Part shown: in pieces, positions 13,192 to 63,914 of the stretch
Layout of the letters: the number at the start of each line of letters is the position of its first letter
Position numbering within the stretch: the first letter of the stretch is position 1
Assembly (NCBI GenBank): GCA_001724265.1
Contig: MEDY01000041.1
Span: forward strand, 1 to 64,000
DNA from: Rhizaria sp. SCN 62-66
Lineage: Eukaryota
Length of the DNA stretch: 64,000 nt
Reading direction: 5' to 3'
Made by a program: the position numbers and the translations under genes
The notes under the pieces: generated by a model
What the model was told of the DNA's origin: nothing
Databases searched by the model: none
The model's input: the letters and a program-made list of their open reading frames with translations, nothing else

Positions 13192-13203
13192 TTTGACGGT
13201 CAC
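13192..13203. promoter_or_regulatory. Candidate promoter element TTTGACGGTCAC (copy 1)
   Basis: An identical 12-mer occurs at 16979-16990. Both copies lie about 200-220 bp upstream of a minus-strand ATG. Confidence 0.35.
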
Positions 13204-19915: not shown

Positions 19916-22900
19916 TTACGCAAGCTTAGAGCGCTTCAAATCGTGCTTCGCAACCTGTGCGTCCACACTCTCCACACCGTCGTCCTCATCGTCGTCGTCA
20001 GCGTTTTTGGTGTTAGTATTGTTGCGCCGGCTGTTGAAGCTACTGTTGCTGCCACTATGACTGCAAACCTCCTAATCGTCGTCGTCGCCCGCGGCGCCGT
20101 CGACCGGCCTCCCGTTACGGAATTCGTCCTTGACGATCCCCAGCGCGAGCAGCGAGGGCGTGTTGCGGCCCCTGAACTCGCTGTCGAGCCCGAAGAGGAT
20201 GTCCTCGCGGAGCCGGAACGAGATGCACATCATCTGCTTCAGCGGGGCCACGTTGCGCACGTCGTGCACGTACACGCCGTAGCGCTCCAGGCTCTCGAGC
20301 ATCACCGCGCTGTCGTAGATCGTCGCGACGCCGCCGTTCGCAGCACCGGCACCGGCGGCGGCGTTAGACTTGTTGTCCTTGCCGTTGTTGTTCTGTGCGT
20401 TGGCCTTGTTGCCGCCCTTGGAGCCCGGGACGTCGCGGCGGACCACGTTGCGGTGCGCCGCTTGGTAGAACATCTCCTTGCCCTCCGGCAGCGCCACCTC
20501 ATTCGCGATCTCAGTCGCAGTAGCAGAGGCATCTGCGGCGGCGGCGGTGGCTGCGGCGGCGGCGGCGACGGTGATGGGCGCGGTGGCCTGCGAGAGCGCG
20601 TCGCGCGTGTCGGCGCACACATCGAGCGACCACTGCGACTGGTGGCCCAGCGACTGCGCCTGCGACAGGCACTGGGGCTCAGACTGCACGTCGAGCGGCT
20701 GCTGCAGGTCCAGATGCTGCGACGGCAGGGTCTGTTGCGACGCGAAGGGGAGCACCGAGGACGAAGACGACATGACGCTCGCGATGGTGTTCGCGCGCGA
20801 GATCGTGCTGTTCTTCTTGTTGTTCTTACCGTCCTTGCTATTAACGTTACTTAGAACAGGCGCGTCAACAAGGTACCCATCAGCACGCTCTGGCACGCTG
20901 TCGCCAGTCATGCCGTTGCCGTTGCTGCCGCGGCGGTAAGGCGTGCCGACGGCGTAGCCGAGGTGCTCCTCGCCCATGCGCATGGCGTCGCCGACCCAGT
21001 CGGCCTCACAGCGCGCGAAGCAGTAGCAGTGCACCGTCGGCGCGCGCAGCCCCGCCGCGCGTAGATGCGCCAGAGTCACCGTCAACACTGGCCCAGACTG
21101 GGACTGCGAATCCGAGCCCGAGTCAGACTGAGAGATCGAGAGAGCAGGGGCAGTGAGGGACTCGGAGGCGGCGGTGTTGCTGCTCGAATCATTGTCGTTG
21201 CTGACGTTGGACTGGGGGATAACGATGGGGGCGCTGGTGTCGAGCCTGACGTGCTTGAGCAGAGCGGCCGCGTCCACGGCCACGGTCGCGCCGTAGCCGC
21301 CTGTGGGCGCGTCGCCGGCGCTGCATCCGCTGGGCGCCGCGGTGGCCACGGGGCCGTCCAGCGCGGTGAGGCCGAGCAAGGCTGCCCACTCGGTGTGCAC
21401 GCGGACACGCGGGCCGCTCGCAGCAGCAGCAGCAGCAGCGTCAGTAGCTTTGCCTTCAGTCACAATTGCGTTAGTAGGGACGGAGGAGCCGTAGAGGCGT
21501 GCGCGCGCGGACGCAGCGTCAGTCGCCAGGGTGTCCACACTCGTCACAGCCGAACCAGCAGCGCCGGCAGCGGTCGCCGTGGCGGCGGCGGCCTCGGCGG
21601 CGGCGATGAGAGTCTTATCGGCCGCGACCTGCGACTCAGTTAACGGGACCGGGGCCATGACCCAGGGCGCCAGCGCCGCGGGGACCGTGCTGCCGTAGTG
21701 CTCTGCGTGCGCGGGACCGAAAAACTGCGCGGGCAGCGCGGGGTAGTCGCTCAGCAGCCCCGCGAGACTGCGCGTCGTCGTCATCGCGTTGGTCACCGCA
21801 GCAGCATCAGTCGCGGCCGCAGGGGCGGGCGAGTAGAGTCCGTTGAAGACGTCAAGGAAAGTGACGGCCGAGGCGGGGAGGTTCATGATGACGTGGTCGA
21901 ACCATGGCACGACGCGCGCCTGGGGGCCGCCCGTCGCGGGGTAGGTCTCGGCGGCGGGCGCAGGGCGGCCCGGCGCCGAGGCCAGGGGCAGCGCGCGGGC
22001 CGCAATCGCGGCGCGGGGCGGCAGCGAGAGCAGCCGCTGGAGAGCCTGGAGCAGCTGCTGGCGGGCCGTGGCACGGATCAGCGCGCGCGCGTCGGCGTTG
22101 AGCACCGAGAGCTTCGAAGACGCGCGGTTGCGCAGAGAGTTCCTAAGTGAGGAAAAAAACCAGAGAAACAAACGAAGAGCAATTAAAATTGAGATAAAAT
22201 AGAAAATGAGATTTTGATAAATTTAAATTTGTTATAATTTGAGGAATATGTGCTAGTGAAATGTGATCGTACCTGTAGAGGTAGAGCGCGGACTTGGGGT
22301 TGAGGTCCGAGGCCCAGACCTCGCAGCCGCTCTGCGCAGCTGGGACCGCGAACGGGCCCACGCCCGCGAAGGGATCCAGCACAAATGACACGGGCGCGCG
22401 GCTCGCGTTAAGGGCCGACGCCGACGGGGGCTTGATGGTGACGCCGCCGACCTTCTTGGCGGCAGGCTTCGCTCCCGTCTCGCTCGCAGCCTTCTTTAAG
22501 TCACAGTCGGTGGTACTGTTGCTGGCGGCGCTGCCGTTGCGCTGGCGCTCGCCCTGCGCAGTCATAATCTGGACCACACGTCGGTGCTCCGTCTGCAGCC
22601 GCGAGTTCCAGTACACCTCGCCGAAGTCGAACTCGAACTCGGTCCCGTGCTCGTAGACCACCGTCATCAGCGATCCGTCGTACCCGTATCGGCCCTCGCC
22701 CGCAGCACTCGCTGCAGCAGCACCGGCGGCGTCGGTCACACCGGAGTCGCTGCTGCTGTTGTTGCCATCTGAGGCGACGACGGCGACGATGGAGCCCTTT
22801 GCGTCGCCGGAGCCTTTGAAGTAGTAAAAGTCGCTCTCAGCGTCGCCGCTCTTGCCCGCCGCGCCCGCATGCGACCGGGCACTCTTGGCGGCCAGCACCT

Positions 22901-23861
22901 CGGCCTGGAAGTTGCGGTACACGTTGTCGATGGCGCCGACCTTGTTGACGACAGTGCGGAGCGTGTAGGACTTGCTGAGGATGACGCGGCCGATGACGTG
23001 CTTGTACGGCAGCTGTTCGTCGCGCAGGTTCACGTGCGCAATGTGCCCAATCAGCGAGTACGACTGCGGGATCGGCGTGTGCGGCGGCAGCAGCGCCGTG
23101 AGGATGTTGTCCGTGCTGAAGGACTCGTAGCCCAGAGTCAGCCGGTATGGCGCCACGGTGCAGCCCAGCGACGCCAGCACGGCCTTGATGGGGCCGGGGG
23201 CGACGCCCTGCACGTTCACCGTGTGCTGCGCGCCCGGGGCCGTCAGCGCGCGCTCCAGCGACGCGTAGTCGGTGATGTCCGTGGAGAGCAGCACACGGCG
23301 GAACGCTTGACTGCCCTGTTGGTCGTCCTTGTCAGCAGCGCTTGCAGGGTGAGTGTTGGGGCAGTGGGGCGCGTCGGCAACAACGTGCTTAATCTGCGGG
23401 ATCTGACAGCCTAGGTTGGCGGCCCTGAGCGCGTTGACGAGCGCGCTGGTGCTGCGCGCGGGCACGCGCAGCGACAGCAGCGGCACGGTCACGTTGAACG
23501 CAGAGAGGTCGAGCTCGGGAGAGTAGAAGCGCGATGGCGGCGGCGGGCGCAAGCGCGTGGGTTTGAGGACCTTGTTGACGGCGTTGTTGAAGGTGTTGAG
23601 CGCGGCGTCAGCGTTGATCAGAGCGACGTCGGCCGTGTCTGCGGCGGCAGTCGTGCTTGCGTTGACATTGTTGGGAGGGAGGAGCTTGAGGATGTGCGTG
23701 AGTGAGCCGGGGCGCACAACGCCCGTAAGCGGATTGATAAACGCGGCGGCCGCAAGGCTGGTCGCCATGGTCGTGTAGGACTCGAGCTCGGCGGAAGAGA
23801 GTGAGGGACAGAGAGACGCGACAGTCGGGTCCGTCGGAGGGGCGAAGCCGCTGGTTGACAT
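19916..23861 (-). CDS. TRM5: tRNA (guanine-37-N1)-methyltransferase Trm5, intron 22143-22272; contains an in-frame TAG at 20072-20074 (ends there if TAG is a stop)
   Basis: SYSLIGHIAHVNLR, TVVNKVGAIDNVYRNF, FDFGEVYWNSRLQTEH, DPFAGVGPFAVPAA, DLNP, FDHVIMNLP, VHCYCF and VHDVRNVAPLKQMMCISFRL. Family identity is solid; the 3' end depends on the meaning of TAG. Confidence 0.9.
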
Positions 23862-24618
23862 CGAAGTAAGGCGGAAAGTGCACTGCAACAGCAGGAGGGC
23901 GCGACAACACACACGAAAGAAGAGAGTGCGTGGAGTGGGCTCAGTGCCAAGAAAGTGCTCGAGTCGCGCGGCGGGGGGAACAGCGGCGACAAAGGTCACG
24001 CACGAAAAGAAGGTGCGGAGTTGCTACGAAGGTGTACAGCAATGTGAAAACAAGTTAGAAGATGATGAGAAATAAATTCAAGATTTATGATGAAGCATCT
24101 GTCTGAAGATCATCGTAAATTTATGCTTGACGACTGGAATGGCGAGATATGGCTCTGCGGATTTCGTCCTCCGAGCCGATGGCTTCGGCACGTCCGCAGT
24201 CACCACAAACCTCGAAAGCAGTGCCACTCACAGCATAAAAGATTGATTCGCAGAGTGAAACTGGGACTGGTGTTAATGAGAGTGAGAGAAAGTTTAGAAG
24301 AACACTTGATATGTATTATTTTATTGGCCTTAATACTTGAAATCAAAATCACCGTTCGTCAGAGCGTCTAAAGCCACAACAAACAGCGAGCAAAGGTCAC
24401 TACAAAACAGAACCATAAGTAAAGCAATTAGCACACAAGGCACTTTGTGCACCGTCTATGAAACTCAAACTTTACTATTTTTAAGCTAAGAAAACAAAAA
24501 CCAGCGAATAGTACGTTCACACACAAAAGATAAGCGCAACAAAGCATTCCCAAGGTTTGCAATGATCGCTCAGTGACTCATGTTTCGTAGGTGTAATCGA
24601 CAATGCATTGTGCGTTGC

Positions 24619-27233
24619 TCAGACCTTGGTGAGAGCGGCGACGAGCAGCGCCCAGTTGAGGAACTTGAACCCGGCCTCCTCAAGCGCGACGACCCTGGCG
24701 TGGAGGCGCTCGAACGAGGCCATGCCGCCGCGCTTGACGAGCGCGCCCATGCCCTTGGAGATCACGGTCACGGGGTCCGTCGGCAGCTCGAGCACGAGCG
24801 CATGCACGTACGCCGTAATCTCGCCTTCGAGCCGCGCAGCCAGCCCGGCGTCCTCGTCCACGGGCTTGACACGCGCGGCCGCGGCCTGCGAGGAGACGGA
24901 GAGCTCGACGGCCTCGACCAGCTCTTGTAGCGAGTCGAACCGTGCGTGCTCGGCCTCGAGCTGCATCAGCCGGCCCAACAGCACGTGCACGTCCTCGCAC
25001 GCGCGCAGCAGCGGGTCGAGCGAGGCCGGCACGACCGAGTCGACGGCGTTGCCCAGCATGCCGCGCGGCCCACACGCGTTGCTGCGCGTGAGCAGGTTGT
25101 ACACGGCCGCGCGCACGGCGTTGGGGAACGTGCCTTTCTCCTTGCATGACACGGCGATAGCGCTAGCGAGCTCGTTCATCGATGCAAAGCGGTGGCCCGC
25201 CGTCTCAAGCGCGCGGATCGTCGACAAGCAGAGCTGCAGGTCGCCGCCGGCCGCGGAGAGAAGCGCGGCGAGCCCGGCGTAGGTGCAGAGCACGGCGCCG
25301 TTGTCGCCCTCGAAGATGGCCGACTCGCCGCCCAGGAAGAGCACCAGGTCGCCCATGTCGTCGGTGAACTGCAGCACCTCGAGTGAGCCGACCTCGAAGT
25401 CGTGCTGCGGGTCCTTGAGCGCGTACACCACCGGCGGCTGCCCCACGCCCACGGGGTGGCGCAGCACCTCGATCAGGTCCACCGTCGCGCGGCCCACCAC
25501 GGGCGCGTCCGCAAGGTCCTGCGGGCCCTGGCCGACGCAGATAAGCACGTCGAAGAAGTTGGAGCTGTGTGGGGCGAAGGCCAACATGCACGCCGCCTGG
25601 TAGTCGGGGCTCAGCGCGTTGGCCACGGCGGGCGTATAAGCCACCAGCGTCGGGTCCTGCCCCGGCTCGGCCGACCACACCGCGCAGAGGGTCGAGAACT
25701 GGCCGCGCTCGCTCAGGTGCGCCGGCAGGTTCGTTGCCGAGAAGGTCACGAGCACGGGGCGCTCACCGCCCAGCTGCGCGGCCGCGGCGCGGCGCTCCGC
25801 CAGCGCGGCCTCGTCCTCCTTGCGGTACTGCTCCAGCAGGAGTCGCTCCTCCTCTTCCGCTGCGGCGGTCGCGGCGGCGGCGGCGGCAGCGGCGGCGGCG
25901 GCGGCGGCCTCGGCGTCGGCGTCGGCGGCGCTGTCGCGGAAAAAGCGCTTGCCGTGCTGGCCGCGCACGCCGGCGCTGGTGAGCGCGCTGGCACCGTTCG
26001 CGCCACCTCTGCCGTGGCCCTCGTCGTCTTCGCCGCCGCTGGGGGAGTCGCCGTCGCCCGAGAGCTGCAGCGTGGGGCCCGCGGCAATGGCGGCGGCCAC
26101 GGCCGCGGCCTCCTGCTCCTCGTCCTCGGAGTCATCCTGGATGTCCAGCATGCGGTCCACCGCAGACATGTTGGCCTGGGAAGAAAGAAAGAGAACACAA
26201 AAAACGCAAAAGAGTGTCGATATGTGTTAGGGTCAGGGTGTGAGAGTGTGAAGATAGAGCCAAAAAACATTAAGAGAGAATCGATAATAAAAACAACAAC
26301 ACATGAGTTTAAGTATAGTATCTTTAGTTGATTTGATTCAAGACATACCTGACGCGCCTCCTTCTCGGCGCGCTTCTTGGCCCTGCGGGCCTCGAACTCC
26401 TTCATCTGCTGCTCGCGGAAGCGCGCGATCTCCTCCTGCCTGGCGGCCTCCTCCGCGCGCGCCTTCTCGGCGTCGTCAGCGGCGATCTGCTTCGCCAGCG
26501 TGTCGGCCAGCGCCTTGCGTCGCGCCTCGGCGTCCATGGCCCTGCGCTTGCGCTCCTGCTCCGCGCGCGCCTTCTCCCACTCCTCCTTCTTGCGCCGCTT
26601 CTCGGCCTCGCGCTTGGCCGACTCGGCCTCCGCGCGCAGCGCCGCGGCGCGGAGCTCCTTGAGCCGCTGCGCTTCTGCGTCGAGCACCTCCATGCTCTGG
26701 CTGGGCGCCATCGGCAACAGGTGCTCACGGCCCAGCAGCGCGCCCGTCATCGCACCCTGCACCGCGCTCGAGGTCTGGAAAAAGCCGGAGGGCAGGAACA
26801 GGTTCGCCAGCGCCTCCTCCGACGCCGCGCTCGACTGCGCCAGCGGCGGCTGCGACTGGCCGGCCGCGTAGTTGCTCAGCAGCGCGCCCGCATCGCCGTC
26901 CGCGCTGCTGCCACTGCTGGCGTCGGCGCGGCCGCCCGGGAGCATGCCGAGGTGCTGCAGCGCGCAGCAGACAAAGCCGGCGGAGATGATGGCGCCGTGG
27001 TGCTTGCTGAGCTCGGCGTTGCGCTCCAGCGACGCAGCCCACTGGCGCAAGAACTCGCTGGCCAGGATGCTGTGCTGACCCGAACGGGATGAGAGGAACA
27101 TCTCGACCAGGTGGGCGACTTCTTCGTCGCTGAAGACGATTTTGAGCGAAGCGTCAGACTGCACCATGTGTGCGAAGAGGCCCAGCAGGTCGACGTACTG
27201 CAGCTCGTCGGGTGACCAGTTGATGATGTCGTA

Positions 27234-27264
<31 letters not shown>

Positions 27265-28598
27265 TGCCCGTCGTGGCTGTCGTCGTCATCGTCGTCGTCG
27301 TCCTTGAGCTCGAGATTCTCCTCCTCAAAGTTGACGTCGTCCGCCTGCACCGAGCTCCGCGACCGGCCGACGCCGTTGCCGCTGCCGTTGCTGCCCTTGC
27401 GGCCGCTGACGTGCTTGCGGCCGCCGCCGGCCGCGCGCGAGCGGTGCCCGCTCACGCCACCCGCGGCGGAGGCGTTGACGAGCCGCGCCCGGCGCGCGGC
27501 CTCATCGCGCTTCTTGCGCTCCTCGACGGCCTTGGTGGCCATTGCGGCGCTGGTGCCGCCGATATCTCCCGCGAGCCCGGCCTCCTCGCGCTCGCGGCGG
27601 ACCTCCTCCAGCACCTTGTCGCGCTCGGCCTGCGGGTCAAAGCCCACATCCGCGGCCACAATGCCGCGCATATACTCGGTGATGAGATCGCCCTCGCGCA
27701 GCCGCGCGCGCAGGCGCTGGCGCACCGATGCCGCGCACTGCTCGGCCTCGTTGCGCAGCGCCGCGCGCCGCGCCGCGTAGGCGGTAACGGCGGCCTCCAT
27801 GTGCGCCTGGTGCTCTGGCTGCACGTGCACGGCCAGCAGCTGCGTCGCTAGCCACTGCAGCAGCGGCGCCAGCTCGACCTGCACGCGGGCCTCGGTGAAG
27901 GAGCGGCCCAGCAGCGGCTGCAGGTACTGGTGCAGGCGCGCGTGGAGCTGGCGCCGGCGCACGTGGCGCGGGTCGCCGTGCGCAACGGCGTTGAGCGGGT
28001 CCTTGCTGTCGTCGGCCAGCGGCAGCGAATACTCGTTGCTAAACTTGATGCCCGAGAGCGTGCGGCGGTGCTGCTGCGCGGCGAAGGTGGAGCCGACGAC
28101 GTTGGCCTTGCGCATCGGGTGCGGCGTGACCGTCGGCGGCCGCTTCGAGGGCTCGCCGGGAAAGAACGTCGGCCGGATGCAGACCTCGTTGCACTGGTCC
28201 ATGACTTCGCGCAGCGTGACGGAGCGGACGCCGTAGGCCGTGGCGAGGATGACCGACACGGTGTCGTAGGTAACGCCGTCCTCCATCGCTTTGTCCGAGA
28301 TGGAGATCAGCCCCACGCGGTCCCAGCGGTCCAGGTCGATTTGCGGCGCCAGGTGCAGCGACTGGATGCGATTCGCCATGTTGCGCGCCATTTCGTCGCG
28401 CACGGGGATGCCCAGCAGGAACGTGCGGGACGACATGAGGATGATGTCGAGGCTGCGCAGCTGGTGCAGCGCCAGGGTCGGGCGCTCGGGGCCGGAGCCA
28501 TAGCGCACGGAGGACGCCGACGAAGAGGAAAGCGTGGAGGAGGACGACGACGTCGTGCGGTTCCGGTGGAACACACTGCGGGAGATGGTCGCGCCCAT
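24619..28598 (-). CDS. Multidomain protein: myristoylation-like N-terminus, degenerate permuted papain-like motifs, coiled coil and C2-like domain; intron 26176-26348
   Basis: The CAG|GTATGT donor and CAG|GCC acceptor join the 950-aa and 516-aa ORFs in frame. Starts MGATIS. The C2-like stretch runs VTFSATNLP...TPAVANALSPDY...VGRATVDLIEVL. TGA stop. Confidence 0.7.
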
Positions 28599-29614
28599 CG
28601 TTGCTACTGTGTCACAAGGTCAATCACAACACGTGTGCGCCTGAGGTGCTGCTGTGTATGAAGGACGGACAAACAACCGGACAGGGCGCGAGCGGCGGGG
28701 CTCGGGGTTGTCGCAGAAGAGTCGAAAAAGAGTGCGTCTCTTGTTCTGGCTCTCGAGAAGAAGAGAGGTTGAGTTGAGAGACTGTAATAAGGGAAAATGG
28801 GGAGGAGGAGTGTTATGCATGTTAGTGAGGCATAGAAGTAAAATAAAGAGTGTAAACGCGTATAGTAACAAATAACAAATCGAATACAAGAGTAAGACTG
28901 ATATAGAAATCATCTATGACCTCGCAGGGCAGAGCTATGTTGACGTTTCGGAGCGTTTGCTGAGTGAATGCACGCTCGAAGGGATGGTCTGTGTAGGACC
29001 ATGACGTTAAGCTCAGAAGACACAAAAGGAGAAAATAACAAATCGCCAATAGACTCCACAAGAAAATAGGCATGCATGCGCCGGTGTCGTCACTTAGTGG
29101 CGCTTTATCCTCTTAAAGTTCCTCCTCTCGTACGAAGTAACTGTCGTCTCTCCGACCGATGACCGTGGGCACTCCCACAGTCACTTTGACCCGATCTTTT
29201 CGTCCTTCAGTTGACACCTTTCCCATCGATGCCTTAAGTCATGCTTGCGAGTGATAATATAATCTTTGGTTTATATTTACTATCTTTAATCATTTTTTCT
29301 CCAGTCGACTCCTTCCTCGTCTTCGACCCACTTAGACTTTGCTGTGTCCCAATTTGACCACAAACGATTTCCTCAATCTTATTTCAGATCCAGCGCTTTC
29401 ACCTCACGTATGTTTCTTACTTTGATTGCTCATTCATGTTTAACACTTGTTTTCACTTTAGACACACTACTTTTCTTGCAACTACACAAGGAAATTACAA
29501 CGTAAATCCTTCCAAGGAAGTAGACAAACAGGCAACACAACCTCGAGTCTTTGTCTTCTTTCACACTGAGCACTCACGCAGAATAGCCCACAACTTGTTT
29601 AATCGCTCCGACAC

Positions 29615-30658: not shown

Positions 30659-31131
30659 AATCTATATTCGTGACTAGCACAGAGTTGTTTGTTCTTGTCT
30701 CTGTCCTTGCTTTTTGTAGACGTAAATCGTTTAGTTTTTCCACAATTCAATCATCAACATAGCGGTGTGATACTGTCAGTTGCGCTGAGGCTGTGGACAC
30801 TGTTGTCACGGGTGTTGGACCAAGATTTTTGTTTTTAGGCGGCGTGACGTATGTTTTTGCGTTGCGGTGTTTGCAAGAGATCAATCCGCACATAGCTTGT
30901 CCGACGCGCTTCATGTGTCCGCAGCTACGCTTGTTAGTATAATTTAATAGCATGTGCTGCTCCGCTGTGAATGCACTTGTACAATGAATACATTTGTACA
31001 GTACAAATATAAATATAGAGTTGATTTACAATACAATGTGAGTAGCTGTAGTAATGTAATGTGTGTGATGTACATGTGATCCAACATGTCGATGAGTTCG
31101 AGAAAACATATGTCTTCCTAATTTTGTGACA

Positions 31132-31438
31132 GCGTGATGGGTATGGGTGGTCTCATTGTAACGCGTCCTTTGATCACAAAACCATCGGGAAGGTAGTTGT
31201 TATGCAAGCAATCGACGCTACGCGTGCAACGTTGAAAGATGAGCTTTTTCAGGAGGTCGAGGGCTTTGTTCGGGTACAGCTCAACGGGCAAGATGGCAAA
31301 ATGGTCACTGACAGAGTGACTGTGACTGTGCACTACGAGTCTGCGCTCCATGCACAAAGACATGCGTTGAGTGCACGCGAGGGTGCGATGACGAACGGGC
31401 TTCTGTGGATGCGCGTGCTGTCTTATTACGTTATTTAA
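31132..31438 (+). other. Orphan exon-like ORF or gene fragment (about 100 codons)
   Basis: An open frame follows a TTTTGTGACAG acceptor-like site (RDGYGWSH...SYYVI-TAA). Its GC content is lower than in neighbouring genes and no upstream exon was found. Confidence 0.25.
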
Positions 31439-31890: not shown

Positions 31891-32490
31891 TCACTTGCGC
31901 TTGATGAGGAAGTACATGCCCATGAAGAGCGCGAAGATGAACAACACCAGGTAGCACATGTAGCTCCCGCCGCCCGACTCGAGCAGCTTGGTGACCTTCT
32001 TGAGCGTCTGCGTCATGGCGCCACCCGCCGTGGTGAACGCGTCATCGACGTCGTCCAGGTAGCTCGACTTGGACTCCTTTCCGATCTCGATCGTGAGCTG
32101 CCGCAGCACGCCCACCTTGTCGTTCAGCTCGTCGATGAGCTCGTCGTTAGCCTCCTCATACAGCCGGTCGTGGCGCTCCTGCACCGCGCGCCGCTGCCGC
32201 TGCGGGTCGTGGGCCAAGTGACTGTATGCACCGCTGCTACCACTGACGGCGCCAGCGCCAGCGCCGAGGCCGGAGCCCGAGGAGGAGACGAAGGCGTTCT
32301 GGGCACTGCGCTGGCGCGGGTCGCTCGGGGAAGGACCAAAGAGGCTGCTGCCGTAGCTGTGCGGGGGAAAAAACGAACAAAGCGGAGAAGGACAAAGAAA
32401 TGCAATGTTAGACAGGAACGGAAGTGAGTGATCGCTAAATGGGGAGAGTTCGTCGCACAAAGAAAAGAAAGAGACGTACGAATCACCCAT
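31891..32490 (-). CDS. BET1: Qc-SNARE Bet1/Sft1-like protein, 2 exons (32490-32480, 32356-31891)
   Basis: SNARE motif EEANDELIDELNDKVGVLRQLTIEIGKE and a C-terminal transmembrane helix YMCYLVLFIFALFMGMYFLIKRK. Intron is GTACGT..CAG. Confidence 0.85.
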   Translation of the reverse strand: MGDSYVSFFSLCDELSPFSDHSLPFLSNIAFLCPSPLCSFFPPHSYGSSLFGPSPSDPRQRSAQNAFVSSSGSGLGAGAGAVSGSSGAYSHLAHDPQRQRRAVQERHDRLYEEANDELIDELNDKVGVLRQLTIEIGKESKSSYLDDVDDAFTTAGGAMTQTLKKVTKLLESGGGSYMCYLVLFIFALFMGMYFLIKRK

Positions 32491-32929: not shown

Positions 32930-35070
32930 ATGTCAAGGTCGCTTGATACGCTTCCATTTCCGCCTCACTGGCGCGGTACGTTTGCTTTGTTGTCGTCCCT
33001 CGCACCCCGCTCTTATTCCCACCGTGATCGCGCCTCACAACCTTCATCTCTTTATCCCAAACTTCCCCAGCGGCTCTGAAAAGCGCGAACTTTCTCACAG
33101 ACGCGGATGTGCTGTCCACGAAGGCGCACCGCCTGGCGCGCGAGACGAGCCTGACGCGCGAGGAGGCCGAGCACATCCGCCGCATCACTCGCGCGCACGC
33201 CGCCTCGCTGCCCCCCGTCCTTGCGCACCCCGGTGCAGCTGCCACAGCAGCGGCAGCGGGGTCCGCATTCGCCGCGGACGCCGCGAGTGCTGGCGCGACC
33301 ACAAACCCCGCACATGCAGTGGCTGGCCCAGTGCAGGCGGTGACTGGCCCCGGGCGCGCGGTGACGGCGCTGGAGCTGGCGCGCCACGGCGGCGTCTACG
33401 CGCTTGCCAGCCGCGCCGCCGCCTCGGCCTCCGCTTAGCAGCAGCCGCAGCAGCAGAGGGAGACGACGCCCGTGTGGGTGGTTGAGAAGCGCGCGCCGAC
33501 CGCGCTTGAGCTGCAGCTCTTTTATCGCAGCAACAACGCCGCGAACACGACGATCAACGACGGCGACAGTGCGAGCAGCGCGAGCGGCGCAAGTGCGGGT
33601 GCGAGCGCGAGTGCCGCGGACGCAGCCGCTGACGAAACTGATACCAAAGAGAACGCTACCGTCGACATCAATAGCGCAAGCTCTACTCGCGCTCGCGACC
33701 GTAATCAGCAGCTGCAGCAGCAGCAACATTCTCAGCAGCAGCAGCACCGTCCCCTGTTCCCTTCTCTCTTCCCGTCTCTATTCCCCCATACTACTTACCG
33801 CACACGCACTGACGCTGCGTCTGCGTCCGGTCTCGGCGCGAGCGCCGCTGCGCCTTCATCTGCGGCCTCTGCGGCCTCCGCAGCCGCGGCTGCGTCCGTG
33901 TCATCGGCCGTGTACCCCGTGGTCACGCTTGTGCGCGGCATTGACGCGCTCCTCGGCGGCGGACTCCAGCGTGGGCTTGTGACCGAGCTGGCGGGTGCGC
34001 CGGGTGCTGGCAAGACGCAGCTGGCGCTGCAGGCCGCGTGCGCCGTTGCGCTGCCCGCCGCGGTCGGCGGCTGCGACGGCGAGGTCATCTACATCGACGC
34101 CGAGGGCGCCGTGCGGCCCGGCCGGCTGCGCGAGATCGCGGAGGGCGTCGCTGCTAGGGTCGCCGCAGTAAACGAGGCCACACGTGCGCTGGCGCTCGCG
34201 GAGGCGGCGGCAGCGGCGGAGGCGGCGACCAAGCAGAGCCTTATTGGCGACGACGATGGTGGCGACGATGGTGGCGATCACAAGAATGACTCTGGTGCTT
34301 GTCCACAGAGCCCCGCACAACGCGCCCCCGCACAACGCGCCCCCGCACAACGCGCCCCCGCGCACAGCGCTCCCGCGCTGCTGTCGCTGAGCGCGGACGA
34401 CGTCCTGCGGCGCATCCATCTCATGCTGCCGCTAGACCGGACCGAGACGGCCGCGGCTGTGCGCGCGCTGCCGCAGCTGCTGGCGGCGCGGCCGCGCGTG
34501 TGCCTCGTCGTCGTCGACTCGGTCGCCACGCACTTCCGCGTCGCGCCGCTCGCGAGCCCCGGCTTCGCGGTCAACAGCGCTGGCTCCAACACAGCAGGGA
34601 TCACCGCGGGCGGCGCGGGCGTCGTGGCTGTGGCTGAGACTGTGCGCGCGCGCGCCGAGGCTGTGGCGATGCTCGCGGCGCAGCTGCAAGCCGTGGCCTG
34701 TGCGCGCGGCGTTGCCGTGCTCAGCGTGAACCAGGTCACCCTCAAGGACACCAACACCAACGCCAACGCCAACGCCGGCACAGCGAGCAGCGCCAGCGCG
34801 TTCGCTGCGGGCGACCGCGACCGCGAGCGTGAGCGCGAGCATGAGCGTGAGAGGCGGCTGGTGCCTGTGTTCGCGGACGCGTGGGCGCCGCTTTGCGCGT
34901 ACCGGCTCATGCTCTTCTGGCGCAGGGGCCGGCGCGTAGCGAGGCTCACCAAGGCGCCCGTGTGCGGCGGCCGCGAGTGCGAGTACGTCGTCTGCGAGAC
35001 CGGCGTCCAGGACGTTGAGCAGGAGCAAGACCAAGAGTTTGATCAAGATCAAGAGCAAGAACAAGACTGA
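32930..35070 (+). CDS. RAD51C: RAD51 paralogue RAD51C; intron 32976-33070; in-frame TAG at 33436-33438
   Basis: The spliced N-terminus MSRSLDTLPFPPHWRAALKSANFLTDADVLSTKAHRLARETSLTREEA resembles the RAD51C N-domain. Also IDALLGGGL, Walker A ELAGAPGAGKTQLALQ, GGCDGEVIYIDAEG, Walker B LVVVDSVA, SVNQVT and RLMLFW. Confidence 0.85.
34311..34360 (+). repeat. Coding minisatellite, 15-bp unit CCCCGCACAACGCGC x3 (PAQRA repeats)
   Basis: Three perfect tandem copies plus a partial copy, inside RAD51C. Confidence 0.9.
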
Positions 35071-35271
35071 GAGTCGAGAGCAGCCTCGTGACTACGGTTT
35101 AAATAACATGATATAGATTCAAGTTATATAGATTTGGAATGACATTGGTAATAATAAATGTATTAATTATACGAATACATATTTAAAGGATAAACTAATG
35201 TAAATAATTTTATCTCTCGTAAGAAAGATCAACAGTCCCAAATTTGTTTCTCCTCACAATTGTTTAGTCGC

Positions 35272-55400: not shown

Positions 55401-57936
55401 CTCGGAGACCTTGGTAATGGTGAGCGTGTAGCCGGCGCCGTACGTCTGCTTGAGGTAGTGGACCGAGCCCATGGTCTGGAGCGAGCCGTCGGCCATGATG
55501 GCCACGCGGTCGCAGATCTCGGCCTCCTCCATCGAGTGCGTCGTGAGCACGATGGCGCGGTTCGCGCGCTCCTGCTGCAGCAACGCGCGCACCGAGGCCT
55601 GCGCCGCGACGTCCAGTCCTGAAGTCGGCTCGTCCAGGATCACCAGCTGCGGGTCACCGATCAGCGCCATGGCGAGCGACACGCGGCGCTTCTGCCCGCC
55701 CGAGAGCGTGCTGATCTGCGCCTCGGCCTTGCAGTCGCCCGCGGGACCCAGTCCGACGCGGTCGATCCAATCGTTCACAGCGCGCTCGCGCAGCGCCTCG
55801 GGGACGTTCTTGAGACGCGCGAAGATGTCGATGTGCTGGCGCACAGTGAGGTTGGGGTACTGGACGTCGTGCTGCGGGCAGATGCCCAGCGAGCGGCGCA
55901 CTAGGTCCATGTCGGTGCGGATGTCGTAGCCGTTGACGCGCGCGCTGCCGCCAGAGGGGCGATACAGGCCGGTCAGCATGTTGATCGTCGTCGTTTTACC
56001 AGCGCCGTTGTGGCCCAGCAGCGCGAAGAGCTCGCCGCGGTAGATGTCGAAGTTGAGCTTCTTGACGGCGACAAAGCCGCCGAAGGACTTGCGGAGACCG
56101 CGAATCTTGATCGACTCGTTGCCCAGGAGCGCGCCCACGGGGGGCTCAACGCGCGCATTGGGGTGCACGGGCGCGGGGGCGTTGAAGACGACGTCGTCGA
56201 CGGAGTAGCTGTCCTCGTCCTGCTCGGCGTCAAGGTTGCCGTAGCCGCTGCTGCTGCCATCACCGTTGACGAGCGAAGCGCCGAGTCCGCTGGCGCTGCC
56301 ACCGCGGCGCGCGCGGCTGCGGGAGACGCAGGGCCAGTAGCGCGGCATGCAGGGAAAGAATATGGGCTTGGGGACGCCGAACTCGCTGGGCATGACCTGC
56401 TGCGCGTAAATAGAGAGGATGAGCATGACAACGGTGCTAACGACCATCATGCCCAGGCCCGTGGCGACGGTGAAGCCGTTGCCGACGGCGATGTTGGAGA
56501 GCGTGACGGCCTCGACGTAGACAGTGCGGGCGAAGATCTCCTTGAGTGTGAAGGACAGCGCGCAGCTGGGGATGAGGCACACTAGCGCCATGAAGTGCGG
56601 GTTCGAGGTCTGCGAGACGCCGAACACGGCGGCGCTGGCGAGCGTGTAGGCAAACGAGCCCACGAGCTGCGCCGTGCGCGCGGTGGAGAAAAAGGTCGAG
56701 ATAAACAGCGCGTAGGCGATGTTGGCGAGCGCGCTGAGGAAGAAGACGAGGAACATGACGATGAAGGACACGTTATTGATGATCGAGACGGCGGAGATGA
56801 GTGCGATAAGCAGCGCCGTGACCGTCATGGTGATGGCGAAGACGATCGCCCAGGAGCCCAGCAGAGCGGTGACGGGGGCGCCCATCATGCGCATGAGCTC
56901 GAACATGCGCGTCTCCTTCTCCATGACGATCGAGGTGAGCACCTGCATGAAGCCGATCGAGATGACGGCGGTGATGATGAAGGGCAGCATCGACGACGTC
57001 GAGGAAAAAAATTTCGACTTCTTGATCGGCAGTAACGCCTCCGAGGCGACGGTGTAGGTGAACGAGGCGGAGACTTCGGCGGCCGTGGGCAGCGTGTCCT
57101 GTGGGTTGAAGCGGACGGCGCCGTGCTGCTGCAGCACGCGCGCGCGCACGGCCTCGACCAGCATGAAGGCGCCGTTGGACAGGAACTGGTCGTAGCCGAT
57201 GCTGCTGTCGCGGTAGTCGTCGCTAATGAAGGATGGGTTGTAGTTAAAGTATGAGACGGGGTAGGCTGTGCGGATGCGCACGGTGTGGATGTTGTCTTTC
57301 TCGTCGTAAGACTCAGAGACGCCCGCAGCGACGTCGGTGGTATAGTAGTCGGTCACGGCTTTGTTGAGCTCCTTCTCCGTCTCGTAGTATAGAATGTTGG
57401 CCGCGGGCAGGGTGGTGTTTTGCGTGAGAATGGCGATGAAATCGTTGTAGGACTCAGTAGGCCCAGCATAACCGATAAAGTAGTTGTTGCTACGGAAGCT
57501 TTCGATGCCTTTGTTCAGGGTAAAGTCAGTCTGGCGCAGAGCAGCGGGCAAGCCAGGAAGCAATGAGGTGACCTCATCACCGTCGATGATGAGAAAGAGT
57601 AGGAAAGGGATGAGAGGAACAAGGACCTCAATCAACACGCTCTTCCTGTGATCATGAGCAAGGCGAGGAAGAGGAGGGCGGCAACGGAGAGGCAAAAACA
57701 AAGTGACAGAAAAACAACAGAAATGAGTGAATAGAAAACACAGGTCTAATCAATATTCAAATAGTTTCGCTTCTTAGAAGTTGTGCTATAACGCAGTAAA
57801 GTGTGAGTTAGGAGGATGAGACGTCGACGGGCTAGGGGTGGATGCTTCACGGCTTCTTGACATTTCTCATGTTGACGTACCAAGCACGACGCCTAAGCGT
57901 GTAGTTTTTAAACAACAAATTCTTCATTTGTGTCAT
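52467..57936 (-). CDS. Full-size ABC transporter of subfamily A; intron 57646-57880
   Basis: N-terminal KNLLFKNYTLRRRAW|K, IVMEKETRMFELMRMMG, and two nucleotide-binding domains (LLGHNGAGKTT/LSGGQKRR/LDEPTSGLD; FLGANGAGKTT/LSGGNKRKL/LDEPSTGID). TAA stop. Confidence 0.95.
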
Positions 57937-58515
57937 AGCGAAAAAAGAGAAATTAGGCCCGAAAAGGAACCAGGAACCGCTCGTTTTGTTCGTCACACAA
58001 AGTTTACGGCAACCGTCATGTCAACACCGATCCAATCCAACCACAAAAAAAAATTTACTTTTCGGCGACGTGACCGCTTCATGCAAAGTTGCCCTGCAAC
58101 GCCAAGTTTTCTGTCTTTTACACTCTACAACACACTTTGTTTTTCAGAGAATAAACCTGTTTTCAAGATGAAAAATACTAGAAAAACGAGTAAGATATGT
58201 GGTGACTGAGTTGTACATGATACTACGACAAATTTCCAGCATTTTGCATCCCATCCTTCACTTTTGCCGTGTGTGAGAGCGCGGACTGCATACTCTCATC
58301 ATGCCTACAAAAGCACATTAATGAACATCTATAATCGAAAGCATACATATGTTGTCTTTTACATATGATGTATTAGTTATAGCACAGAGCTGATACATTG
58401 AAGCACTAGATATGACTTGAATTCACTTATATTAATAACATGGGTCACCTTCACCTTGCACAACAGCCAAAGCCACTGCAATGCACTGTGTGTCTACAAC
58501 ATTGCGATCGGGGTC

Positions 58516-61500
58516 TCACCGTGCTCCGGGCTCGCGCCTACGGGCCCGGGCCGCAACTTGCGCATCCACGTGCTCATTTGCAGCCGCTGCCGCAGCCGCC
58601 GCTGCTGCGGCAGTGGCAGCGGCACGCGCGTCGTTGTTGTCACGCATTTCAACAGGAGCAGCACCACGAGCGGCATCCCGTGCAGCAGCAGCAGCAGCAG
58701 CAGCGGCGTCGGTCGCGGCGTCCAGTTCGCGCTCCATGCGTCCCGCGCGGCGCACCATGGCGCTGACGTCCTGGCGGCACGTGGGACACGCGCTGCTGCG
58801 CTCGAACCACTTCTTGACGCACGCGACGTGGAACGGGTGCATGCACGGCGGGCGCGTGATCTCGGCGCCGACCTCGAACGCGTCCAGACACACGGGGCAC
58901 TCAACGTCAACCATGGCCGCCGCCATCGACGCTGTGACCGTGGCGCGCGCCAGCGCGTGCAGGACGCTGCGCTGCAGAGGGCCGTCGAGGTCGCGGGCGG
59001 CGCGCTGTGCGAGCCGACCCTGCATGAGGTGGACGATGGGGCCGACGTCCTCCACCTCAGCCAGGCGGCGCATCATCCTTGCAAAGCCCTCGTCGCCGCT
59101 GTCGTTGTCGCTCGAGTCAAACATGTGGTTGCGGCCGCCGCCGCCGTCGCCGCCGACGCCGTCGTCGTAGTCGCTGTGAAACTCGTCGGACATGGCTGCG
59201 TCCGAGTCAGCCTCAAAGGACGCGTCGCCGTCCTCGTCTTCGTCCTCATCCTCGTCGTCGCCGCTGTCGTCGGTGCCGCTCATGCCGACGGGGCGGGCGA
59301 CGTCGCTGTCGCTGGGGCTCGTATCGCCGTCGCCACTGCTCGCGCCAGACGTGGTGTCAGACACGTCCGACCCGCTGAGGTCCTCGTCCGAGCCATCCAC
59401 GGCGCGGAACAGCGAGTCCAGCTCCCCCTCGTCGTACGCCACGCCGTTGATCAAATTGCCGTTATCACCGCGGTTAGCAGCGTTGGCGCGGTCGTTCGCG
59501 GCGGCGGGGCGGCGGAACACAGGGTCGTTGGCGCTCAGCTCGCGGTCGCTATCGTGATCGCTCACCTGCGCCGCGCCTCCATCGCCGCCAGCACGCGCAA
59601 CGTGTTGCTGCGCGCGCTCTCCGCGGTTGTCACGGTCGAAGCTCTCGTCGCGGTCGCGGCGGTCACGACCGGAGCCCTCCCCTGCGGCGGCGACGGCGGC
59701 GATGCGTTGGCGGCGCTGCAGGCGGGCCGCGCGGCGCTGCCCGGCGACCTCGTCCCGCCGCCGTTGCACCGCCGCGGGGTCCGGCTGCCACCCGTCCTCG
59801 TCTCCATCTCCGTCCGCGCCTGCGCGCCCGGCGGCGGCGGAGGCGGCGGCGGCGGCGTCGCGCCAGAGCGCGCGGTGCTCGGCGTGGAAGGCCTCGCGCC
59901 GCGCCGCGCGCCGCGCCTCGCGCCGCGCCACCTGCTCGGCGCGCCGCTCGCGTCGTGCCTCACGCATCTGCCGGCGCTCGTCCCGGTGATCGAGGCGCAG
60001 CGCACGGCGGCCGAGCGCCGCGCCGCGGCGCTGGAGCCAGCGCTCGCGGCGCTGCGCGTCACGTTCTTCCGCGAGCGCTTGGTGGCGCCGGGCCGCCTCG
60101 TCCGCGGCGCGTTCGCCGCCGTTGCCGGCGTTGCGGCCGTTGCGGGCGGGAATGGCGGGCCTGGCCGCCAGGCCCCGGAGCGCGACGTCACGGGCCGCCT
60201 CTGCGTTGCGGCGGGCCGCATCCGCGTTCCGCTGGGCCTCGGCAGCGTCGCGGGCATTAATCGCGACCACTTCGCGGACGAGCTCGGCATATTCGAGTGC
60301 GCCGCCGGCGTCCCGATGGAGGTGTGCATGCCCGAAGTGTGCGCGCCCCCCCGCGCGCGCGCCGCCGTCTTCGTTAGCGAGCCGCACGTGCGCGGCCTCG
60401 CTGCACACGCACATCTGGTCCGTGGCCCACGTCTGCGCGGTCAGCGGCAGCGCGGCGGCCGAGAGCAACCCCCGACAGTGGCGCCAATCAAGCAACTGGG
60501 TCATGAGGCGCAAGGTCCGCGCGGCGTCCGCACCGGGGTCGCCGAGCGGGGGAACGCCGCCGCTGCAGACTACAGCAAACGCGGCAGCGGTGTCCGAGGC
60601 CGGGAGGTAGTCAAGCAAAGCAAGTTGCTGGCTGCGACCCGCGCGCACAGCACCGACCCCAGCGCCAGCATCCGCGCTGGCGCCAGCGTTCCCGGCACTA
60701 GAACCGTCAGAAAGAGCAGCACTGCCGTTCGCACTCACACTTGCAGCGTTCGCCGCCGCTGCCGCCGCAGCAGCAGCAGCAGCGGCCGCAGCCGCAGTGG
60801 TAGTGAAAAGGGCAGAGGCACTCGCGTGCGCGGCACGAGCGTTGCCGTCCGCCGCGGGGGCGTTGTGGGACAGAAGCGGCAGCATCTGTGCATGCAACAC
60901 AGTGTAACCCAGCTTGTCGAACGCATTGCAGGTGTATCCCGCAGATGCGGCCCGCCCCGGCCGCGCGCGCAAGTCGGCCTCGCGCGCCTGGGTCCAGTTA
61001 AGCTCGTCCTCGGGCGTCACGGCCGCCGTTGCAGCTAGCTCGAGCGCCGCCGCAGCGGCCGCAGCCCGCGCGGCGGCCAGTTGTGCCGTCAGATCTGCGC
61101 GCACGGCCCGCTGCGCAGCGCTGTCGGCCTGGCCCGCTGGCGCCGCCTCCGCCGCCAAGGCAACGCAACGAGTCTCGCAGAGGCGCAGCGCCCGGGCGAG
61201 CGCCGCCGCGTCCGCGCAGGCCCGCGCGGCAGCGTCGCAAACGTGCCCGTACCTGTGTGCATGCATCCGGTGCTCCGCAGCCAGCGCGGGCGCAGCGCTG
61301 ATCTCCAGCTCGACGTGCGTGCGCGTGCCGACGCAGCCCCACACGACGGCGCGGTGCCCGTACGGCGCGCGCACCACGGCCACGGGCGCGCCCTCGGCCG
61401 CGGCTACGGGCACCGCGCCGGCCGCGGCCACGGGCGCAGGACGGTCGCGCGCGAGGGCCAGGTGCGCGTTCATGACGCGGTGCGTGGCCTGCGCCAATGC

Positions 61501-62853
61501 GTGCGAGGGCGCGCTGGCGGGAGGGTTCGTGGACCCATCCACGGACGCGCCCAGGGACGTGCTCAGGATCACGTGCGCGGGCACGAACGGCGCCCGGACC
61601 GAGTCTTGAATCGCGAGAGTAACGGCGGGGGCTGCTGCTGCTGGAGCTGCAGCGGCAGCGGCTGCAAGCAAGCTGGCGTGTTGACACTGTGCATTGATGT
61701 CGTGATTTTCGGCATCATCGGAGACACACGGCGCGTCTTGGGACCCAAATGACCCAGACAGAGGTGTTAACGAGCTGGTCGCAGACAAAGCCGTAAGGAA
61801 GGTGATAGCGTGCCTCTTGATCGCCCTCGTTAGGGTTTCCGCGGCGGGGGCTGCAGCCGCGGCCTCACTTTGAGGCGGCGCAGCCTGGCTTCCCGCGAGC
61901 GACGACGACTCTTGCGCTGCTTGCTGCGGGGAGTTTTGTGCGAGCGCCGAGTTCACCGCCTGGCGGGCCTCAGCTTCCACATCCTCGGCAAACGTGCCTT
62001 CCCGTCTCTGCATATCAGTCTGCAGCTCTGTGGTGTAGTCTTGGAGCGCATGTGCCAGCGGGTACTCGCGCTCGGTGTCGTCGTAGTGCCGGTAGCGGAT
62101 GCAGGCACCATCGCGCGGCACGCACAGCTCCACGCCGTACACCACGGGCTCGCCGAACAGGTCCGCCGCGTGCAGGTCGCCCATGCGCACTGGCAGCGCC
62201 ACGTGCTGCTGCGGCTGCGGCTGCGGGTGCTGCAGTTGTTGCTGCCGCCCCGGCTGTCTCTGCTGCTGCGGGTCGCCGGCGGCGGCGTAGGCGGGTGCGA
62301 GGCGCGCGAGCTGCGCCAGCCGCTCCGTGAGCAGAAACATGAACGCGTCGCGCAGCGTGCTTTGGTCCCACTCGGCGAGGCTGGGCGGAAGCCATAGGCG
62401 GATGCGCACACGTTGCAACAGGAAGTCGGGCGCGTCGCGCGCGGGTTCCGGCGCCAGCACCGAGGCCGGGGGCGCCAGGCCCAGCGGCCGCACGGCCACA
62501 GTCGCGGGCAGCGGGCGCAGGAAGAGCAGCGGGAACAGGCGGGCGGCGGCCGCGGGGCTGAGGTACACCGTGTCGTCGCGGGGAGGCCCGTTTCCGTCGG
62601 CGCAGGAGTAGCGGGCGGCGACGGCCGGGGGGAAGCGGGTCGACAGCAGAAACGGGCATTCAGGCGCCGTGGGGTAGTTAGGAAACTGGAGCGCAATAAG
62701 CCAGTTGTCGCGCGCGTTGCAGCTAAGGCGGGTGGCGTCAGTGAGGTAGACTATTGCGTCGTCAGCTGCGTTGGCAGAGGCATCGGTGCCCCATGCTGCA
62801 GGGTCGAGCACGCTCAGACGCAGCGGACGGGCGTCCCAGACTTGCGCTGACAT
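58516..62853 (-). CDS. RING-H2 E3 ubiquitin ligase-like protein
   Basis: C-terminal CPVCLDAFEVGAEITRPPCMHPFHVACVKKWFERSSACPTCR, preceded by acidic and Arg-rich coiled regions. Start is taken at MSAQVW and is uncertain. TGA stop. Confidence 0.85.
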   Translation of the reverse strand: MSAQVWDARPLRLSVLDPAAWGTDASANAADDAIVYLTDATRLSCNARDNWLIALQFPNYPTAPECPFLLSTRFPPAVAARYSCADGNGPPRDDTVYLSPAAAARLFPLLFLRPLPATVAVRPLGLAPPASVLAPEPARDAPDFLLQRVRIRLWLPPSLAEWDQSTLRDAFMFLLTERLAQLARLAPAYAAAGDPQQQRQPGRQQQLQHPQPQPQQHVALPVRMGDLHAADLFGEPVVYGVELCVPRDGACIRYRHYDDTEREYPLAHALQDYTTELQTDMQRREGTFAEDVEAEARQAVNSALAQNSPQQAAQESSSLAGSQAAPPQSEAAAAAPAAETLTRAIKRHAITFLTALSATSSLTPLSGSFGSQDAPCVSDDAENHDINAQCQHASLLAAAAAAAPAAAAPAVTLAIQDSVRAPFVPAHVILSTSLGASVDGSTNPPASAPSHALAQATHRVMNAHLALARDRPAPVAAAGAVPVAAAEGAPVAVVRAPYGHRAVVWGCVGTRTHVELEISAAPALAAEHRMHAHRYGHVCDAAARACADAAALARALRLCETRCVALAAEAAPAGQADSAAQRAVRADLTAQLAAARAAAAAAALELAATAAVTPEDELNWTQAREADLRARPGRAASAGYTCNAFDKLGYTVLHAQMLPLLSHNAPAADGNARAAHASASALFTTTAAAAAAAAAAAAAAANAASVSANGSAALSDGSSAGNAGASADAGAGVGAVRAGRSQQLALLDYLPASDTAAAFAVVCSGGVPPLGDPGADAARTLRLMTQLLDWRHCRGLLSAAALPLTAQTWATDQMCVCSEAAHVRLANEDGGARAGGRAHFGHAHLHRDAGGALEYAELVREVVAINARDAAEAQRNADAARRNAEAARDVALRGLAARPAIPARNGRNAGNGGERAADEAARRHQALAEERDAQRRERWLQRRGAALGRRALRLDHRDERRQMREARRERRAEQVARREARRAARREAFHAEHRALWRDAAAAASAAAGRAGADGDGDEDGWQPDPAAVQRRRDEVAGQRRAARLQRRQRIAAVAAAGEGSGRDRRDRDESFDRDNRGERAQQHVARAGGDGGAAQVSDHDSDRELSANDPVFRRPAAANDRANAANRGDNGNLINGVAYDEGELDSLFRAVDGSDEDLSGSDVSDTTSGASSGDGDTSPSDSDVARPVGMSGTDDSGDDEDEDEDEDGDASFEADSDAAMSDEFHSDYDDGVGGDGGGGRNHMFDSSDNDSGDEGFARMMRRLAEVEDVGPIVHLMQGRLAQRAARDLDGPLQRSVLHALARATVTASMAAAMVDVECPVCLDAFEVGAEITRPPCMHPFHVACVKKWFERSSACPTCRQDVSAMVRRAGRMERELDAATDAAAAAAAAARDAARGAAPVEMRDNNDARAAATAAAAAAAAAAANEHVDAQVAARARRREPGAR

Positions 62854-63564
62854 CGTGCACAGAGAGGCAAGATACGTAGCCCTCTGACAATGCACGTAGA
62901 CTAGCGAACGGCACTCTGAGGCAAACCTGTGTTGTTTGAAATGGGTGAGAAAAGAGGTCGTTGAGGGATGAGACATCACTGGATTGTAGCAGCATTTCAA
63001 CAGCTCCGATGTAGCTATAAGAGCGCCCACAGAAGATAATCAATAAAGGACAAATATAAAAGCTGAATTTAAAACATGACCCGGCTAAAAATTAAGATAA
63101 ATCGGCCGGTGGCACGTCGATAGTATTAGTTTTCCAAGCTGGACTGCAAGCGCCAAGGGACGCCGCGAGCCCACCACAAACGCAGCGAGAGATACATTTC
63201 TTGTGATATCTTATTAATTTCAATGTTGAATGTAAGATTGAGCGAGTCAGCCGTTTAACTTTCACAATATATGTATTTTATTGTACAAAATACACGTGCC
63301 TGCATGACTACAATATGAGTACAGCGCGATATGTTCGATGTGAAAGAGGAGAGTATCAAGAAAGCATGAGGATGGGCTAGCCGATGATTTACTAGGAGCA
63401 TTTTTCGAGAAGATAAAGTTAATCTTTGAACAATTTGATTGATTATTAGATACGTTGGGAACATGTGGTTTTATTGAAACGGCTTAGTCTGTGATCGAAT
63501 GTGCTTTTGTCGCAGGATATCGCATGGAAGTTCCACGCACTTCGGAACCTGTCCCCGCCTCGTG

Positions 63565-63914
63565 TCACAAACGACGTTCGCATTTGCCCAGCATGCAGCA
63601 ATGCAACAGAGTTGTTACGACCTCCACAGTTTCCATGACACGTCTTGGTGGCACCTTAGGCAGTTTTCCCCTACCGAACCACCAGCCGACGCACTCGGCG
63701 CGGACCGGATACTTTGCACGGCCGCCGCCGTACCCTTGCTCGTGACTGTGCCCGTGACCGTGGCTATGGCTGCGGCTGTGACCGTAGCAGTGGTCGTGAG
63801 GGAACGCACCCTCACCTCCGGATGCGTTCGCAGTGTGGCTGTGTGGCCATGACTGAAGCAGTCTCCGTGACTACGGTGCCACGGTCACAGTCACGGTCAC
63901 GGCCAGATCCGTAG
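63565..63914 (-). CDS. Putative 3' exon of a gene entering from the right edge (His/Gly-rich; in-frame TAG at 63871-63873)
   Basis: After an ACTTAG acceptor-like site the frame reads TDLAVTVTVTVAP*SRRLLQSWPHSHTANASGGEGAFPHDHCYGHSRSHSHGHGHSHEQGYGGG... to TGA. No homology recognised. Confidence 0.4.

Follow-up and report, generated by a model that had tools for sequence, protein, structure and literature searches.

Background

Nuclear genetic codes that treat UAG differently from UAA are rare. In excerpts of Panek et al. 2017 (PMC5304391), the rhizarian exLh (Sainouroidea, Cercozoa) is described as translating UAG as leucine, with UAA and UGA retained as stops. Its reassigned codon is plentiful (384 in-frame UAGs in 71 genes, ~5 per gene), and UAA is the stop in 56 of the 71 (PMC5304391). 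The eRF1 of exLh carries Ala at the position corresponding to human Leu69 (PMC5304391). The same excerpts report Iotanema spirale (Fornicata) to read UAG as glutamine, where it is scarce and makes up ~8% of Gln codons (PMC5304391). Excerpts of a further source add reassignments of UAG alone in phyllopharyngean ciliates (Leu, Gln), Protocruzia tuzeti (Gln) and the green alga Scotinosphaera (Ser) (PMC11687900). By these partial accounts, nuclear codes splitting UAG from UAA are found in fewer than ~ten lineages (PMC5304391, PMC11687900). Here we analyze a 64-kb window, positions 1 to 64,000 of contig MEDY01000041.1 (assembly GCA_001724265.1, Rhizaria sp. SCN 62-66), in which two genes, RAD51C and TRM5, carry an in-frame TAG. 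Our reading, to which we give a probability of roughly 0.7, is that the nuclear genes of the source organism use UAG as a rare codon for an amino acid.

The window shares several properties with exLh. Both belong to Rhizaria and broadly to the same subgroup (Cercozoa), and in the window, as in exLh, UAG alone appears to be affected, with UAA and UGA acting as stops. Unlike exLh, the window holds 2 TAGs in ~19 genes rather than ~5 per gene, and its main stop is TGA (13 of 19) rather than UAA. Base composition also differs, the window being GC-rich (0.53-0.73 per 2 kb) with a GC content at third codon positions (GC3) of ~0.8-0.9 in its genes. With UAG very rare and TGA preferred, the window is not assigned to the exLh/Sainouroidea lineage or to its code of abundant UAG read as Leu. 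Iotanema spirale, where UAG alone is reassigned and is scarce as a sense codon, would be similar. However, it belongs to an unrelated supergroup and the window's usage would be far lower, with 2 TAG against 393 CAG/CAA in 11,503 training codons. As in the ciliates and Scotinosphaera, UAA and UAG would be uncoupled and UAG would be sense. Those are other lineages, whose codes were inferred from data covering whole genomes or transcriptomes and backed by tRNA evidence, whereas the present case has two TAGs. The literature records returned by our searches (UAG with Sainouroidea; stop reassignment, metagenome-assembled genome (MAG) and Codetta), as far as their excerpts extend, describe no such code in a wastewater cercozoan. 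If true, the present case would probably add to the known, rare reassignments of UAG alone.

An in-frame TAG within RAD51C

RAD51C comprises two exons on the forward strand, and the TAG lies within the second.

32930..32975, + strand: RAD51C exon 1, beginning at ATG and encoding MSRSLDTLPFPPHWR plus 1 base (15 codons + 1 base)
32976..33070, + strand: RAD51C intron 1, 95 nt, GTACG...CCCAG, pyrimidine-rich
33071..35070, + strand: RAD51C exon 2, a single open frame save for the TAG, with its stop TGA at 35068-35070
33436..33438, + strand: in-frame TAG, RAD51C codon 138, bridging the open reading frames (ORFs) 33028-33438 and 33439-35070

Exon 2 was identified by its Pfam Rad51 match (E 5.8e-21), and its top PDB matches are RAD51C chains (E 4.4e-27). 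The N-terminus alone gave nothing significant by phmmer against PDB or against Pfam, and a word-based search for RAD51C homologues, dominated by matches to low-complexity words, returned 1 match only. N-terminal homology emerged only via the orthologue P0129, a 534-aa full-length RAD51C from a relative (exhaustive phmmer, E 4.5e-67). Exon 1 is identical to the first 15 residues of P0129 at 11 of 15 positions (E 3e-08). Splicing of intron 1 restores the frame, such that ...WR-A-ALKSANF in the window matches ...WRNALEAANF in P0129. The first 132 residues of exon 2 align to the same protein (40% identity, E 2e-13), and this alignment continues through the TAG.

Conserved landmarks lie on either side of the TAG. 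The linker motif TALELARHGGV, common to the window's RAD51C, P0129, P0131 and P0146 by alignment, sits 17 codons upstream, and the ATPase core follows the TAG without a change of frame. Over 40 codons in each flank, codon usage scores positive, at +0.40 and +0.36 per codon. A first-pass annotation of this DNA had placed the TAG in a coding frame, and both the codon scores and the alignment to P0129 bear this out. An in-frame UAG inside coding-like sequence was found at 2 sites only in the window, in RAD51C, where it lies between conserved parts of the protein, and in TRM5.

The position of the TAG also constrains how the protein could be made. Walker A starts at 33994, while the first in-frame ATG past the TAG is at 34423, 143 codons beyond it. 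With the stretch between the TAG and this codon free of in-frame ATGs, the ATPase would be producible only by translating the TAG.

Four contigs span the site with 0 other letters (X8 rec31, X5 rec23, X4 rec15, and X2 rec7). X8 rec31 is a 281-nt contig of a polyA metatranscriptome library which covers 33234-33514 with no gap and no change. The remaining contigs derive from a second run labelled as complementary DNA (cDNA) and from two DNA assemblies of other samples.

An alternative gene structure, with exon 1 spliced directly to the AG of the TAG, was rejected, as the frame then shifts into a TGA 16 codons on. Separately, the region 33340-33900 contains TALEL twice, as TALELARHGG before the TAG and TALELQLFYRS after it. 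A low-complexity insert of ~140 residues, absent from P0129, precedes the ATPase core. The doubled motif and insert region may be a local duplication.

An in-frame TAG near the end of TRM5

TRM5 lies on the reverse strand and likewise has one intron.

22273..23861, - strand: TRM5 exon 1, first ORF ATG at 23861-23859, containing TYW2_N_2 and the beginning of the TRM5/TYW2 methyltransferase domain (Pfam); donor CTACAG/GTACG
22143..22272, - strand: TRM5 intron, 130 nt, AT-rich, GTACG...CTTAG, in a low-GC island at 22126-22293
19916..22142, - strand: TRM5 exon 2, including a 51-codon tail past the TAG and ending at TAA 19918-19916; motifs HVIMNLPASA and VRNVAPLKQMMCISFRL
20072..20074, - strand: in-frame TAG of TRM5, 52 codons upstream of the TAA, closing the exon-2 ORF

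The frame changes between the ORFs 22143-24023 and 20072-22222. The intron links the conserved ...ASDLNPKSALYLYR to NSLRNR...NADARALI, followed by HVIMNLPASA. The TAG at which the exon-1 ORF appears to end (22143-22145, - strand) is not a stop, as it consists of the last three bases of the intron (the acceptor).

Sequence past the TAG at 20072-20074 retains coding character. The 51 open codons of the tail score +0.22 per codon in frame, compared to -0.72 and -1.04 in the other frames, and their GC content at codon positions 1/2/3 (0.55/0.39/0.67) shows coding periodicity. Among 21,058 intergenic windows of 153 nt, 0.5% were both open and as high-scoring. For comparison, past the 18 gene-end stops that are TGA or TAA, the frame closes in 2-33 codons and the score is negative in 17 of 18, the exception being a stretch of 2 codons. 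The earlier assignment of this TAG as in frame was upheld, and the codons past it stay open to the TAA at 19916-19918. A protein search for relatives of the TRM5 C-terminal region returned the window's own protein alone.

DNA contig X4 rec9 (19500-20329) spans the TRM5 TAG with 0 other letters. CAG or GAG at the TAG positions, which the first-pass annotation had named as evidence against a sense codon, did not appear: the contig alignments list no variant letter at either the RAD51C or the TRM5 site.

The tail has the C-terminus ...KRSKLA (19919-19933, - strand), in which SKL is one residue from the end and, as it stands, is not a canonical peroxisomal signal. At ~1,270 codons (19916-23861, - strand), the gene looks far longer than TRM5 proteins usually are, owing to inserts of low complexity rich in Ala, Ser, and Asn. 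RAD51C and further genes in the window show low-complexity expansion of a similar kind.

Stop-codon usage across the window

The window contains 19 gene ends. Besides TRM5, 13 are TGA, 5 are TAA, and 0 are TAG; the end of TRM5 is a TAA if its TAG is read through. The earlier tally of 13 TGA and no TAG was reproduced, with its TAA count corrected from 3 to 5. TAG accounts for 22% of the window's stop triplets. If TAG had a share of 0.20, 18 ends would all lack it with a probability of 0.018, falling to 0.006 for a share of 0.25; over the shares assumed, this probability ranges from 0.006 to 0.05. Within the window, UAG is not used as a terminator at any of the 18 ends besides TRM5, which is a small sample. 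As a putative sense codon, TAG occurs 2 times in ~16,460 ORF codons.

Termination at UAA and UGA was observed at the expected C-termini of four genes. As the first-pass annotation had proposed, TAA acts as a stop for CCT1 (547 aa, compared to 545-548 in homologues) and for NFU1, whose terminal exon ends at TAA past the NifU motif. ABCA also ends at TAA, 23 residues beyond its C-terminal R1 domain. RAD51C ends at TGA, with the PDB RAD51C alignment reaching residue 664 of 665. Past all four stops, the frames close quickly and scores are non-coding.

We then compared the two TAGs to stop triplets throughout the window. Among 751 stop triplets with 20 open codons on each side, 22 were coding-like on both sides, and 22 of 22 were TAG. 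Antisense positions, where TAG is the complement of CTA Leu codons, accounted for 20 of these; the only two on the sense strand of genes were the RAD51C and TRM5 TAGs. A 10-codon window was less clean, with the RAD51C TAG passing, the TRM5 TAG failing, and two TGAs passing (51719 and the annotated stop at 31891).

A third TAG had been placed by the first-pass annotation within a putative terminal exon.

63871..63873, - strand: third TAG, present and unsupported as coding

Each 10-codon block around it scored ~zero or lower in all three frames examined, and the sequence had no Pfam match. This site gives the earlier claim no support.

Probable decoding of UAG as sense

The RAD51C TAG, the TRM5 tail, and the lack of any TAG stop would all be explained together if UAG were a rare sense codon. 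The first-pass proposal of a sense UAG with UAA and UGA as stops stands as the best-supported reading of two of its three sites and of the stop tally, with no support from the third site. In this model, UAG would have been dropped as a terminator and would rarely be read as an amino acid, with UGA (the main stop) and UAA still terminating. Decoding would involve a tRNA with a CUA anticodon, and eRF1 would no longer recognize UAG efficiently. The scant usage of UAG and the zero TAG stops would fit an early stage that follows loss of the stop function and subsequent capture of the codon.

The amino acid may be Gln, Leu, or Glu. The RAD51C TAG is opposite Leu of P0129 by BLASTP (beside a gap) and opposite Glu by MAFFT, in a low-complexity stretch where alignment is unreliable. 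It precedes a CAG run, the basis on which the first-pass annotation had guessed Gln. The TRM5 TAG follows an Asp run and precedes GAG.

As to the origin of such a code, we give about even odds to an independent and very young reassignment of UAG in a clade of GC-rich wastewater cercozoans, caught at the stage of codon capture. Rhizaria would then have altered the nuclear code a second time, in a separate event. UAG, already gone as a terminator, would have come back as sense only a handful of times, in unconstrained protein segments. If true, such scant use of UAG as sense in a GC-rich rhizarian that lacks UAG stops would offer a rare view of the intermediate predicted by models of codon capture, and nuclear code changes would recur in Rhizaria. 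There would also be a practical consequence. In the protein collection, both TRM5 and the N-terminus of RAD51C are represented by fragments that stop at the TAG (P0279 and P0130). Since gene callers cut at TAG, the annotation of these protists in wastewater metagenomes would be systematically wrong.

Several observations weigh against a sense UAG. There are two codons only, both in poorly conserved segments of low complexity, and neither aligns to a conserved residue column. At the codon frequencies of these genes, a single-step nonsense mutation yields TAG in 69% of cases, such that the identity of both codons as TAG cannot separate reassignment from two recent nonsense mutations. Contigs carrying the TAGs come from near-identical strains (109 of 109 residues identical apart from the start residue, and 698 of 699); TAGs shared among such strains do not demonstrate conservation over evolutionary time. 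The polyA contig supports the RAD51C TAG but is not proof, because RNA libraries may hold DNA. For TRM5, the GC content of the tail is intermediate (0.52-0.54, compared to 0.68 upstream), its TAG fails the 10-codon test that two TGAs pass, and a protein terminated there still keeps every conserved motif. Finally, the 64-kb window contains no tRNA genes (ARAGORN, Rfam), and the eRF1 gene is not within it. Based on a single 64-kb window with just two such codons, each in a poorly conserved segment, the sense reading is credible but unproven, and probably correct.

The standard code is the strongest of the alternatives, though we consider it unlikely here. RAD51C would have suffered a recent nonsense mutation. 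TRM5 would end normally at its TAG, or would have lost a dispensable tail by a second, nearly neutral nonsense mutation. The missing TAG stops would be sampling noise combined with a bias for TGA. Termination of TRM5 at the TAG would be harmless, as it comes 45 residues after the conserved VRNVAPLKQMMCISFRL motif, and RAD51 paralogues have been lost in some lineages. The high share of nonsense paths leading to TAG favors this account, as does the single near-clonal strain carrying the TAGs, in which a young mutation could be fixed in all. If TRM5 is counted as ending in TAG, finding no more than 1 TAG among 19 ends has a probability of 0.08 for a TAG share of 0.20. Against this, three separate coincidences are required among 19 genes: a null mutation in RAD51C, a conserved repair gene whose 543 codons are otherwise intact along with its Walker motifs; a coding-like open tail, of a kind seen in 0.5% of intergenic windows, behind the sole TAG "stop"; and no TAG at any other gene end. 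Furthermore, identical TAGs recur in assemblies from samples dated 2015 to 2025.

Readthrough offers a second, improbable alternative. UAG would generally be a stop, with leaky termination or gene-specific programmed readthrough by near-cognate decoding producing RAD51C and an extended TRM5 isoform. The very low usage of UAG (2 per ~16,460 codons) would suit this explanation, and the CAG CAG following the RAD51C TAG partly resembles CAR-YYA, a readthrough context motif. However, the two contexts are unlike (TAG CAG CAG in RAD51C, TAG GAG GTT in TRM5), and there is no unusual RNA structure past either TAG, the 120 nt downstream folding no better than shuffles (z +0.68 and +0.57). An essential ATPase wholly reliant on inefficient readthrough would be unusual, and a UAG that generally terminates sits poorly with 0 TAG terminators at the 18 other gene ends.

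It is hardly credible that the TAGs reflect errors of assembly, are edited out of the RNA, or fall within unrecognized introns: although RAD51C does have an intron and an in-frame GT...AG pair can be drawn around its TAG (33394-33438, 45 nt), that stretch is GC-rich, like the TAG context as a whole, with a GTCTAC donor, whereas the two introns seen (RAD51C and TRM5) are AT- or pyrimidine-rich with GTACG donors and YAG acceptors, no GT...AG pair surrounds the TRM5 TAG, the polyA contig crosses the RAD51C site gapless and unchanged, and independent DNA assemblies agree at both TAGs. Of 40 joints, 15 were listed, and neither of the two introns was among those 15. Joints with short sides (20-27 nt) in repeats were not read as splicing, and RNA-run bins without cover were not used as evidence.

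Source organism and gene content

The 64-kb window carries long genes on both strands, almost without introns. Genes named by Pfam include SRP68, a leucine carboxyl methyltransferase-like protein, Snf7, an mRNA cap N7-methyltransferase, TRM5/TYW2, and otubain, along with a RAD51 family member, a giant protein with IQ motifs, CCT1, NFU1, an ABCA transporter, and a RING protein. DNA of the window was found in bioreactor and wastewater metagenome runs from seven studies; the runs X1-X4 contain 79-99% of the words sampled.

CCT1 was used to place the source. Its closest relatives are unnamed sequences (77-80% identity), and the best named matches are all rhizarians at 65-67% (Mataza, Lapot, Paulinella, Amorphochlora, and Plasmodiophora). 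A maximum-likelihood tree (19 rows) grouped the window with three unnamed sequences (100/100). This clade nested in a group with cercozoans (98/95), which in turn nested in Rhizaria (100/98); the placement rests on this single gene. Judged from sequence, the source is an uncultured, GC-rich cercozoan rhizarian from wastewater or bioreactor samples.

CCT1 scans of metagenome, viral, and genome contig collections found neither the window's own contig nor a close relative (metagenome, best 80 loci kept, top 69% identity; viral, 0 matches; genome, 5 loci). One locus, L084, was rejected as a relative, its CCT1 being no nearer to the window than other rhizarians. This gene (9340-15157, ~10 exons) comes from a eukaryote of 48% GC and lies on a 2.83-Mb contig labelled as a Nitrospirales bacterium MAG. 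Given a eukaryotic CCT1 in a MAG labelled as bacterial, the contig or bin appears to be eukaryotic or chimeric.

On the reverse strand of the window, 24619-28619 contains two long, high-scoring ORFs which have no Pfam match, 24619-26226 and 25746-28619; they overlap but lie in different frames. Joined through what looks like an intron, the AT-rich island 26163-26370, they would form one gene of ~1,300 aa and unknown function. Within 25234-25513, one contig from the polyA RNA run is ~97% alike to the window, with 9 mismatches in 280 letters, among them G>C at 25270 and at 25288. These mismatches suggest a second, slightly diverged strain or species in the polyA RNA sample.

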